Origin: an uncultured bacterium
Lineage (GTDB): Bacteria; Hinthialibacterota; Hinthialibacteria; Hinthialibacterales; JAKPRU01
Direction: 5' to 3'
DNA length: 64,000 bases
Assembly (NCBI GenBank): GCA_964612675.1
Contig: CAZTDD010000004.1
Coordinates: 38,386-102,385 of the forward strand
The notes under the pieces are model-generated. The model ran no database searches. It saw only the letters and a list, made by a program, of their open reading frames with translations, and had not been told where the DNA came from. Shown here in pieces: positions 45,482 to 46,864 of this stretch (positions within the stretch are counted from its first letter, which is position 1; the number at the start of each line of letters is the position of its first letter). The position numbers and the translations under genes were made by a program.

Positions 45482-46051
45482 TCACCGCGTACTGCCCATC
45501 GAGACGAAGCCATACGTATCCCTGTAAATATACCCCGGACTGCGGAGTCCATTCGTAACGGCATACCACTGACGGCTGGGTAAGGCGGGGGGTTTTTGTT
45601 GGAGGACGTTGGCAGCGGGTTCTGCAGACCCGGGCCCCTGGACATAGGTGTACCAATATGGGGGGTCTCCCGTGTGTTTGCCGAAAAACACGGGAGCCGA
45701 TCCGATTTCGTTTGTCACGAACGGTGACGTGGGAATTTCGGCTAGATAATCCGGCTGTAAGAAGTCTGCGGCCTCGATGACATTGGATACGACATGTGTG
45801 CCGTTCCCAATCGCATGAGACGTAGCACCATGAGACGTAGCACCCGGAGAAGGAAAGCCTCCGTTGTGATCCGTTGCGTATTGCTGTACCGCAAACAGAA
45901 CATCTTTCAGATCGCGGTGTGCCTGAAGCACCTCCAGCCGCATCTGCGCTTCTTCGGTCTTCTTCGGGATCACCGAATAGACGGATAGACCCACGGCGAA
46001 AACCGCCACGATGACAATCTGCGAGACCACGGAGCGGGTTTTCTTATCCAT
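45482..46051 (-). CDS. Hypothetical membrane-anchored protein (189 aa), pilin-like helix without prepilin motif
   Basis: N-terminal TM helix (IVIVAVFAVGLSVYSVIP). This is followed by a helical EEAQMRLEVLQAHRDLKDVLFAVQQYATDHNGGFP segment resembling the pilin alpha1 continuation, but there is no G|F(T/S)LIE processing site. An in-frame 15-bp tandem duplication (GATSH x2) lies at 45814-45843. Its start overlaps the stop of the small-protein gene by 8 bp. Confidence 0.45.
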   Translation of the reverse strand: MDKKTRSVVSQIVIVAVFAVGLSVYSVIPKKTEEAQMRLEVLQAHRDLKDVLFAVQQYATDHNGGFPSPGATSHGATSHAIGNGTHVVSNVIEAADFLQPDYLAEIPTSPFVTNEIGSAPVFFGKHTGDPPYWYTYVQGPGSAEPAANVLQQKPPALPSRQWYAVTNGLRSPGYIYRDTYGFVSMGSTR

Positions 46052-46268
46052 GCGTCTCCGGCGGCAGGGAGTGTCCGGAAGAGGTCGGTTCTCTCCACGC
46101 GTCCTCGATGGCCCTACGGGTATCTCTCACTTCAAATACAAGATCTTCCAAGGATCGCTTCAATTGAACGAGGAAGTAAAGGATAAGCCCGAGAAAGATC
46201 AGCGGGATAATGCTGCCGAACAGGCCAAACATGAACATCGGAAAAAAGGCTACAGCTGAAGCAGACAT
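46044..46268 (-). CDS. Small membrane protein (74 aa), paralog 1 of 3
   Basis: About 30 hydrophobic residues (AVAFFPMFMFGLFGSIIPLIFLGLILYFLV) followed by a charged tail, QLKRSLEDLVFEVRDTRRAIEDAWRE. Same architecture as 46279-46479 and 46640-46864. Confidence 0.5.
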   Translation of the reverse strand: MSASAVAFFPMFMFGLFGSIIPLIFLGLILYFLVQLKRSLEDLVFEVRDTRRAIEDAWREPTSSGHSLPPETHG

Positions 46269-46278
46269 CTATCGTTCC

Positions 46279-46479
46279 TCACGATCTTGAATTCGGGGGC
46301 CGATATCTTGAATAATTTGTCACCGCTCGGCGCATGTCCCGCATCTCCAATACGATCTCGTCTACGGTGCGTTTGACCTGTACAAGAAAATAGATGATGA
46401 GCCCGAGAAACACCAGTGGAATGATGGATCCGATGAATCCCAACAGCACGATTGGGGCAATAAAAAAGACTTCCGGCAT
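46279..46479 (-). CDS. Small membrane protein (66 aa), paralog 2 of 3
   Basis: FFIAPIVLLGFIGSIIPLVFLGLIIYFLVQVKRTVDEIVLEMRDMRRAVTNY, about 60% identical to paralog 1. Confidence 0.5.
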   Translation of the reverse strand: MPEVFFIAPIVLLGFIGSIIPLVFLGLIIYFLVQVKRTVDEIVLEMRDMRRAVTNYSRYRPPNSRS

Positions 46480-46551
46480 GATCTATTCTTCTTTCTTCAG
46501 TTTTGTTCTTTTCTCTTCTTTTTTGCTCTCGATCTGCTTAGGCACTCAGCG

Positions 46552-46578
46552 CAGGTCCGGGAGTTCAACTCCTGCACC
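46552..46578. repeat. Palindromic hairpin of the GGAGTTCAACTCC core family
   Basis: ggtccgggagttcaactcctgcacc, an imperfect palindrome located just after the stop of small-protein paralog 3. Confidence 0.5.
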
Positions 46579-46639
46579 AGCGGATCGAGTCTATCATGTC
46601 GAGCCGGTGGAAGGCCCTTGTTCCCCGACAGGTCCGGAT

Positions 46640-46864
46640 TCAAGTTGAGTTCTTGTCATCCTGTCCATCGCTCGTTCGAGTGCAACCCGAGTATCGTGCA
46701 TCTCGCAAGCCAGGTCTTGGGTGTTCCGTCTGACAAGCCAGGTCTTGGGTGTTCCGTCTGATTTGAAACAGAATATAGAGGATCAGACCAAACAACGCTA
46801 TCGGAATCAGCGTCCCGAAAAGGCCAATCCCCAGCACGACAACACCTTCTATCGCTCCAGGCAT
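46640..46864 (-). pseudogene. Small membrane protein paralog 3, frame-shifted by a 28-bp tandem duplication
   Basis: The N-terminus GAIEGVVVLGIGLFGTLIPIALFGLILYILFQIRRNTQDLA is homologous to paralogs 1 and 2. A perfect direct duplication of caagccaggtcttgggtgttccgtctga (46706-46733 and 46734-46761) follows. Removing one copy restores the paralog-like tail ...ACEMHDTRVALERAMDRMTRTQLESG. Confidence 0.55.

Follow-up and report, generated by a model that had tools for sequence, protein, structure and literature searches.

We analyzed a 64,000-nucleotide stretch of DNA from an uncultured bacterium (assembly GCA_964612675.1, contig CAZTDD010000004.1; hereafter the window) whose minus strand carries, at 45482–46864, three tandem genes for small membrane proteins of about 70 amino acids (aa), A, B, and C, followed by a longer gene, D. 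Most likely, these genes make up a membrane module that is lineage-restricted and unannotated, probably a complex of transmembrane helices, in which one paralog has recently been broken. In the window and its relatives, between one and three ~70-aa genes stand in tandem, usually with D behind them, and the module lies head-to-head with the gene for a secreted protein of ~770 aa. A, B, C, and D are genuine conserved genes with orthologs in about five uncultivated lineages. A first-pass annotation, made from the sequence alone, had raised the idea of a novel membrane module, and this idea gains ground, as the genes form a conserved block of their own that is unmatched by any library. The pseudopilin fold is the known part of the module, the small-protein family is the unrecognized part, and the mutations are ordinary.

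A is currently read as a 74-aa open reading frame (ORF; 46640–46864, minus strand) that is frameshifted past residue 44. Its ancestral frame (46594–46864, stop at 46594) encodes 80 aa and has an intact 80-aa ortholog, P0009, in the related contig L009. B (46279–46479, minus strand, 66 aa) contains one hydrophobic segment (residues 4–33), a KR pair, and a heptad-patterned tail with an E-x-x-D-x-R motif. C (46044–46268, minus strand, 74 aa) begins 10 bp past the end of B. D (45482–46051, minus strand, 189 aa), a predicted N-terminally anchored and diverged homolog of GspG-like pseudopilins, overlaps C by 8 bp (46044–46051, ATGGATAA). The spacing between A and B is 160 bp, or 114 bp if counted from the ancestral stop of A. 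The ORF list gives the same four minus-strand frames and the same overlap as the first-pass annotation. Divergent to A–D, the gene for the ~770-aa protein occupies 47090–49402 on the plus strand and probably starts at a conserved ATG at 47102; its product has a signal-peptide-like N-terminal segment. Base composition is ordinary, with no sign of recent transfer.

A Conserved Family of Small Membrane Proteins

The view of A, B, and C as three tandem paralogs is borne out by pairwise comparison, in which B matches C at E = 1e-17 and A, with its frame repaired, matches C at E = 6e-12. Related contigs were located by exact-protein look-up. One of these, L009, is an ENA contig with ~82–88% nucleotide identity to the window that holds A, B, C, and the beginning of D. 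Its comparison with the window gives a ratio of nonsynonymous to synonymous substitution rates (dN/dS) of 0.27 for repaired A, 0.11 for B, 0.06 for C, 0.21 for D, and 0.14 for the divergent 770-aa gene.

The small-protein family totals 14 proteins among 5.8 billion. A/A′, B/B′, and C/C′ are orthologous groups that are kept in L001, L009, and L010, and the triplication is therefore older than the split between the window and L001. In L008, the two small copies are most alike each other (86% in the core), which suggests a separate duplication or gene conversion, and L013 and L014 have one small gene each. Conservation and copy number of the triplet in relatives, a check proposed in the first-pass annotation, thus come out as a triplet that is kept in L001, L009, and L010, with one to three copies per lineage overall.

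An alignment of twelve sequences shows seven invariant positions (P21, Y30, L32, Q34, E45, D48, and R50) and five near-invariant ones (L22, L25, L27, D41, and R47). Each small protein contains an uncharged stretch of 27–34 residues with a neutral or acidic N-flank and KR or RR directly after it. In the tail, 5–7 of the 7 heptad a/d positions are hydrophobic, in one common register across the members tested. From the basic pair after the uncharged stretch and the neutral or acidic flank before it, we infer by the positive-inside rule that these are single-pass proteins with an N-out/C-in topology and a cytoplasmic amphipathic or coiled-coil-type helix of ~25 residues.

Scans of A–C against Pfam, NCBIfam, PADLOC, and PHROGs gave no usable matches, in agreement with the earlier statement that no family is recognized for the paralogs. 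A profile of the small proteins matched a single entry in the PDB, a designed repeat protein, which we regard as spurious. We found no relatives among viral contigs (IMG/VR) and plasmids, and a scan of JGI metagenomes returned one contig, already known. Another ORF, P0016, on an ENA contig of 1216 bp, joins the first 28 residues of C to unrelated hydrophobic sequence; contig chimerism or rearrangement is the probable explanation.

Two known types of small membrane protein invite comparison. We rejected YajC (PF02699) as a relative: the juxtamembrane LGLIxYFLxxQxKR of the small proteins resembles the YajC sequence FGLIFYFMILRPQQKR, but hhalign gave a probability of 51% over 21 juxtamembrane columns only, there were no Pfam matches at E ≤ 1, and the YajC C-terminal domain is absent from the small proteins. 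PspB-type proteins are small and bitopic, with an N-out/C-in topology, one transmembrane segment, and a cytoplasmic coiled coil. The family is similar by analogy only: its members have ~70 aa and carry, in their N-terminal part, a transmembrane segment that is followed by basic residues and by a predicted short, heptad-patterned cytoplasmic helix; it differs in giving no Pfam or NCBIfam matches at E ≤ 1 and in having no pspA or pspC neighbors.

Two Tandem Duplications and the Fate of Paralog A

The block contains two short perfect tandem duplications, and both are genuine derived mutations, specific to the window lineage, rather than errors. Tandem Repeats Finder reports a period of 28 and 2.0 copies at 46706–46761, inside A, where the unit CAAGCCAGGTCTTGGGTGTTCCGTCTGA occurs twice, and a period of 15 and 2.1 copies at 45814–45844, inside D, where the duplication proper occupies 45814–45843; matches are 100% at both sites, and string comparison finds the copies identical within each pair. 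The whole 64 kb contains no other perfect tandem duplication, and its one further array, with a 36-bp repeat in fliK, is imperfect. By our own arithmetic, the chance of two random events falling ≤950 bp apart in 64 kb is ~0.03.

The first-pass annotation had described the 28-bp duplication as a frameshift in the third paralog, and the repeat search, string comparison, and restoration of the frame agree on this. When one 28-mer is deleted, A encodes an 80-aa protein that ends ...QDLACEMHDTRVALERAMDRMT... and contains the restored stretch ...FQIRRNTQDLACEMHDTRVALERAMDRMT...; this repaired product agrees with the intact 80-aa P0009 of L009 and with A′ of L001, so the paralog-like C-terminus that had been expected is indeed recovered. 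The 15-bp duplication in the 189-aa gene is likewise as first described, in frame and with identical copies, and it doubles GATSH at residues 70–79 of D. Its site is a length-variable loop in the alignment, where D′ of L001 is 5 residues shorter. Aligned to the window, L009 shows one gap at each site, of exactly 28 bp in A and exactly 15 bp in D. Because this close relative has neither duplication, both are derived; the 28-bp duplication is also without a counterpart in L001. The 28-bp junction shows no microhomology, and the periodicity extends on neither side.

The frameshift begins at residue 45 of A and removes the invariant E45, D48, and R50, so that none of the invariant tail residues is left. 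In both lineages, A is also the fastest-evolving paralog, with 65% identity between the window and L009 compared with 92–97% for B and C, and it carries changes at near-invariant positions (L22I, L25F, and R47H). An outgroup relative-rate test for accelerated decay of A gave 9 versus 4 unique changes and was not significant (p = 0.17). Between A (46594–46864) and positions 786–1028 of L009, the synonymous divergence (dS) is 0.78, compared with 0.16–0.34 for B, C, and D, and dN is also above that of the neighbors; recombination from a diverged source, beyond relaxed selection alone, could explain these values. Since the out-of-frame tail of A still reads like its orthologs, the event is young. 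A is most simply a young pseudogene, recently inactivated and in principle revertible.

Two other explanations of the duplications deserve consideration. The window derives from a metagenome-assembled contig, and mis-joined reads can yield short perfect duplications, so both could have been made by the assembler, as the first-pass annotation had allowed. Logan, which uses a different assembler and works run by run, nevertheless reproduces both. Three of its single-run assemblies (SRR7048224, SRR7048220, and SRR7048218) are 100% identical to the window over 1.8–3.0 kb; the 28-bp duplication is present in Logan contig L005, and the 15-bp duplication is present in L005, L006, and L007. The run and assembly accessions gave no matches in the literature. 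The 28-bp period is shorter than the Logan k-mer length, which we take to be 31, and if this value is right, the k-mers across the 28-bp array are all unique and must come from reads. The agreement among single-run assemblies thus makes an assembler artifact very unlikely, to the point of being negligible. A phase-variable switch, in which the 28-bp duplication is gained and lost often, toggling A and altering the composition of the small-protein complex, is a less remote idea that we still consider unlikely. Perfect two-copy repeats can be lost precisely, the orthologous loci hold other short duplications and a variable-number tandem repeat (VNTR), and the orthologous character of the out-of-frame tail, with the youth that it implies, would also suit a switch. 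In Bordetella pertussis, a 30-bp inactivating duplication in BP3410 was lost under selection and function came back, but the same study saw no re-forming of the duplication (PMC8546581). The tract in A has only 2.0 copies of a 28-bp unit and no junction microhomology, and it is not a hypermutable tract. For this organism, moreover, the duplicated allele is alone on record: a single-copy 28-mer allele was found neither among the 14 family members in 5.8 billion proteins nor in the Logan assemblies, and the intact A alleles that we did find belong to other lineages. The substitutions L22I, L25F, and R47H hint at relaxed constraint, with the reservation that the rate test was not significant.

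As a recently broken gene, A has a parallel in BP3410, a Mn exporter gene that was inactivated by a 30-bp tandem duplication (PMC8546581). In both cases, a short perfect two-copy tandem duplication disables a membrane-protein gene, and precise removal is possible in principle. The cases differ in that reversion under selection was demonstrated in Bordetella, whereas only the two-copy allele of A is on record, and in that A has two intact paralogs next door. The 28-bp duplication represents a textbook route to breaking a gene, one that is possibly reversible.

D as a Diverged Pseudopilin Homolog

Profile comparisons indicate that D is a pseudopilin-derived, GspG-like homolog without a prepilin cleavage site. 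When 1.84 billion representatives were scanned in full with HMMER, a profile of D and P0004 found two strong relatives only, P0004 itself and P0024 of L008, along with 16 weak matches, among which N_methyl/T2SSG proteins appear at whole-library E values of 8e-6 to 1e-3. Ten of the weak matches were scanned; the N_methyl prepilin motif is present in 7 and T2SSG in 1, and by NCBIfam they are nearest GspG. Direct alignment of the D family to the weak-match N_methyl/T2SSG proteins with hhalign gave a probability of 98.9% (E = 2e-17) over 175 columns and shows a common C-terminal Y..TNG..S.GYI.R..G motif. In the D family, the C-terminal QWYAVTNGLxSPGYIYRDT is highly conserved, as are the Y58/D61 and Y102/P107/P110 motifs. 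The initial description of the 189-aa protein as pilin-like therefore holds in terms of homology, though D is not a pilin in the functional sense.

D appears to share with GspG-like type II secretion pseudopilins and with type IV pilin-like proteins (PF07963, PF08334, and TIGR01710) a long N-terminal hydrophobic helix, and it has in common with the full-length N_methyl proteins P0029 and P0031 the motifs A..DL..L..A...Y..D.NG..P and YL..IP.DP. It differs from GspG-like pseudopilins in lacking Gly(-1), Phe(+1), and Glu(+5) and in having a 3-residue insertion in the helix. In a joint alignment, TRSVVSQ of D stands opposite (K/R)GFTLIE of seven N_methyl proteins, and the prepilin-peptidase site, Gly(-1) with Phe or Met(+1) and Glu(+5), is absent from D. 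With the cleavage motif lost, D is not expected to be processed and should stay membrane-anchored as a bitopic protein and should not serve as a fiber subunit. Neither the annotated ORFs of the window nor those within ±10 kb in L008 include assembly machinery (secretion ATPase, platform protein, or prepilin peptidase).

D itself scores below every pilin model: it matched no family in Pfam (E ≤ 1) or NCBIfam (E ≤ 0.1), with nothing above a pilin or pseudopilin cut-off, and none in PHROGs and PADLOC. An AlphaFold2 model of D shows a helix at residues 3–61 (59 residues) followed by strands, with a mean predicted local distance difference test score (pLDDT) of 62 that falls to <50 past residue 139. 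The D-family profile had no matches among solved structures. A mixed profile, A4, did match pilin structures, but we discarded this result as circular since A4 itself contains pilins. No relatives of D or of the 770-aa protein were found in GTDB species-representative genomes.

Archaeal FlaF and FlaG are uncleaved, archaellin-like, membrane-anchored proteins. By analogy only, D would resemble them in the reuse of a filament-subunit fold as a stationary, membrane-anchored extracytoplasmic domain after signal processing was lost; they belong to another domain of life and to another fold family than D. The window also encodes a canonical N_methyl pseudopilin (3507–4181, minus strand, 224 aa), whose N-terminal region shows 73% identity to that of P0029, one of the remote homologs of D.

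The 770-aa Protein and the Flagellar Neighborhood

A homolog of the 770-aa protein adjoins the small genes divergently in L001, L008, L009/L010, and L014. In L008, unrelated genes flank a block made up of a 781-aa gene, two small genes, and D; identity to the corresponding window proteins is 48% for D and 44% for the 770-aa protein. In L014, the homolog stands divergently beside a single small gene; D is absent, and a DUF4405 gene lies downstream. The arrangement in these two contigs indicates that the stable partner of the small genes is the divergent 770-aa gene and not the flagellar run that follows D in the window. The 770-aa protein gave no usable matches in Pfam, NCBIfam, PADLOC, and PHROGs and has no recognizable domain. 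A glycosidase identity was considered and set aside: a GH14 match appeared at E = 0.018 in one of three homologs, and a profile matched beta-amylase and GH42 chains at sub-threshold E values of 0.015–0.2 over ~30 residues (about 350–385), which amounts to a lead and not a finding.

Past D, the minus strand of the window carries an M20 peptidase gene and then fliK, flgD, flgE, motA, and two motB genes. The motA gene and the two tandem motB paralogs, each with MotB_plug and OmpA domains, occupy 34389–36835.

This neighborhood suggests that the small proteins and D could be flagellar accessories that work with the adjacent FliK, FlgD, FlgE, MotA, and MotB, in keeping with the link to the flagellar run drawn in the first-pass annotation. 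The genes lie on the same strand, directly upstream of the M20 peptidase and flagellar genes, and the order A′-B′-C′-D′-M20-fliK is kept in L001 and L002. Linkage is confined to the window and these two contigs, however. It is absent from L014, which carries the DUF4405 gene downstream instead, and from L008, where the ±10 kb around the small genes, D, and the 770-aa gene are free of M20 and flagellar genes. Moreover, A–D match no flagellar Pfam or NCBIfam model, and the M20 peptidase and a gap of ~300 bp stand between D and fliK. We therefore regard a flagellar role as improbable, and the apparent association as local synteny only. A holin-like or export-helper function, in which the small proteins would open a lesion or channel in the membrane to release or activate the 770-aa protein, appears highly improbable. 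The proteins do have the look of holins, being small with one transmembrane segment and a highly charged C-terminus, and their genes are constantly paired with that of a large exported protein. But the 770-aa protein has its own signal-peptide-like N-terminus, PHROGs gave nothing at E < 0.09, there are no viral relatives in IMG/VR, and the neighbors are cellular genes with no lysis genes nearby.

A Possible Membrane Complex

The first small protein of L008, P0015 (131 aa), begins with MGKAGLGFGVVVAIIGILAVITVPNFLNAEVHAKV, a pilin-like N-terminal helix that is fused to the small protein. This N-terminus scores as pilin-like in NCBIfam (PilA, E = 5e-6; GspG, E = 9e-4), and a strong Shine-Dalgarno sequence precedes the ATG. 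The pilin-type helix would run in-to-out and the family transmembrane segment would then run out-to-in, which fits the topology predicted for the small proteins. By Rosetta-stone reasoning, this fusion hints at contact between the small proteins and helices of the pilin type, for example that of D.

Returning to the reading of the block as a membrane module, we tentatively propose that the small proteins oligomerize and bundle with the D helix in the inner membrane, while the periplasmic domain of D cooperates with the 770-aa protein. The paralogs would oligomerize via the transmembrane segment and tail and would pack against the transmembrane helix of D, which is of the pilin type. Being unprocessable, D would remain membrane-anchored with its pseudopilin-like domain facing the periplasm, and D and the secreted 770-aa protein might act together, with the latter being retained, positioned, or sensed. 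In the organism studied here, B, C, and D would carry the function, as two-copy and one-copy versions would in other lineages. More speculatively, the whole might be a previously undescribed inner-membrane complex, in which small N-out/C-in subunits hold a pilin-type helix in a bundle; it would operate independently of type II secretion and type IV pilus machinery and would anchor, or signal about, the 770-aa protein.

Several observations weigh against a module of this kind. D is absent beside the single small gene in both L013 and L014, and L013 has no 770-aa neighbor either, so the module is not obligatory. All relatives may come from one clade, which would make common gene order weaker evidence than it looks. 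The role given to the 770-aa protein is a guess from gene order, and its AlphaFold2 single-sequence model is unusable (pLDDT 33.5). The model of D, at a pLDDT of 62, is only moderately confident, and a Foldseek search with it against the PDB gave no match at E < 1, with a few pilins among the non-significant ones. An internal start is possible for the P0015 fusion, and A, whose transmembrane segment survives the frameshift, might still have some role.

If the proposed complex is real, a pseudopilin filament-subunit fold has been reused as a fixed membrane anchor, its partners form a new family of membrane proteins of the very small kind that annotation pipelines routinely miss, and the orphan 770-aa secreted protein gains a defined set of partners. 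The family is confined to a few uncultivated lineages, so its broader significance stays limited unless a function can be assigned.

Repeats and Insertions at Related Loci

From the two duplications, the first-pass annotation had suggested a locally slippage-prone region. Part of this suggestion stands, as orthologous loci hold insertions and deletions of their own (L010 and L001), but they speak for a general habit of these genomes rather than for a dedicated mechanism. L010/L011 carry a 39-bp near-perfect tandem duplication at 735–818 (SVQYFSSSPIDPG twice), at the 5′ end of A′, that is absent from L001 of the same lineage. Between B′ and C′, an insert of ~450 bp (L001 3612–4060 and L010 1305–1760) contains G-rich palindromes and a 24-bp VNTR in 3.8 versus 5.6 copies; gene calling turned this insert into a spurious ORF (135 or 151 aa). 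The fliK gene contains 36-bp tandem repeats, with three imperfect copies in the window (42088–42203) and a perfect two-copy duplication in L001 (7217–7289). Short tandem duplications thus look like a common class of mutation in these genomes, with some local clustering and no pointer to a dedicated mechanism.

Scanning of 44000–48000 against Rfam gave no matches, and in a promoter and terminator scan, the number of sites was not above that in shuffled sequence. Relative to L009, the divergent promoter region of the window contains an insertion of ~105 bp (46914–47029). With a perfect 11-bp direct repeat (CGTCAAGATAG) at its borders, imperfect terminal inverted repeats of 19 nt, and a GC palindrome in its center, it resembles a miniature inverted-repeat transposable element or a repetitive extragenic palindromic element, with one copy in the window. 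Between A and B, a low-complexity stretch at 46486–46560, purine-rich on the minus strand, is absent from L009, and one Logan contig terminates within it. At the far end of the window, the minus strand of 242–2662 carries four tandem ORFs of ~198 aa; the two that were scanned are Uma2-family putative endonucleases (PF05685).

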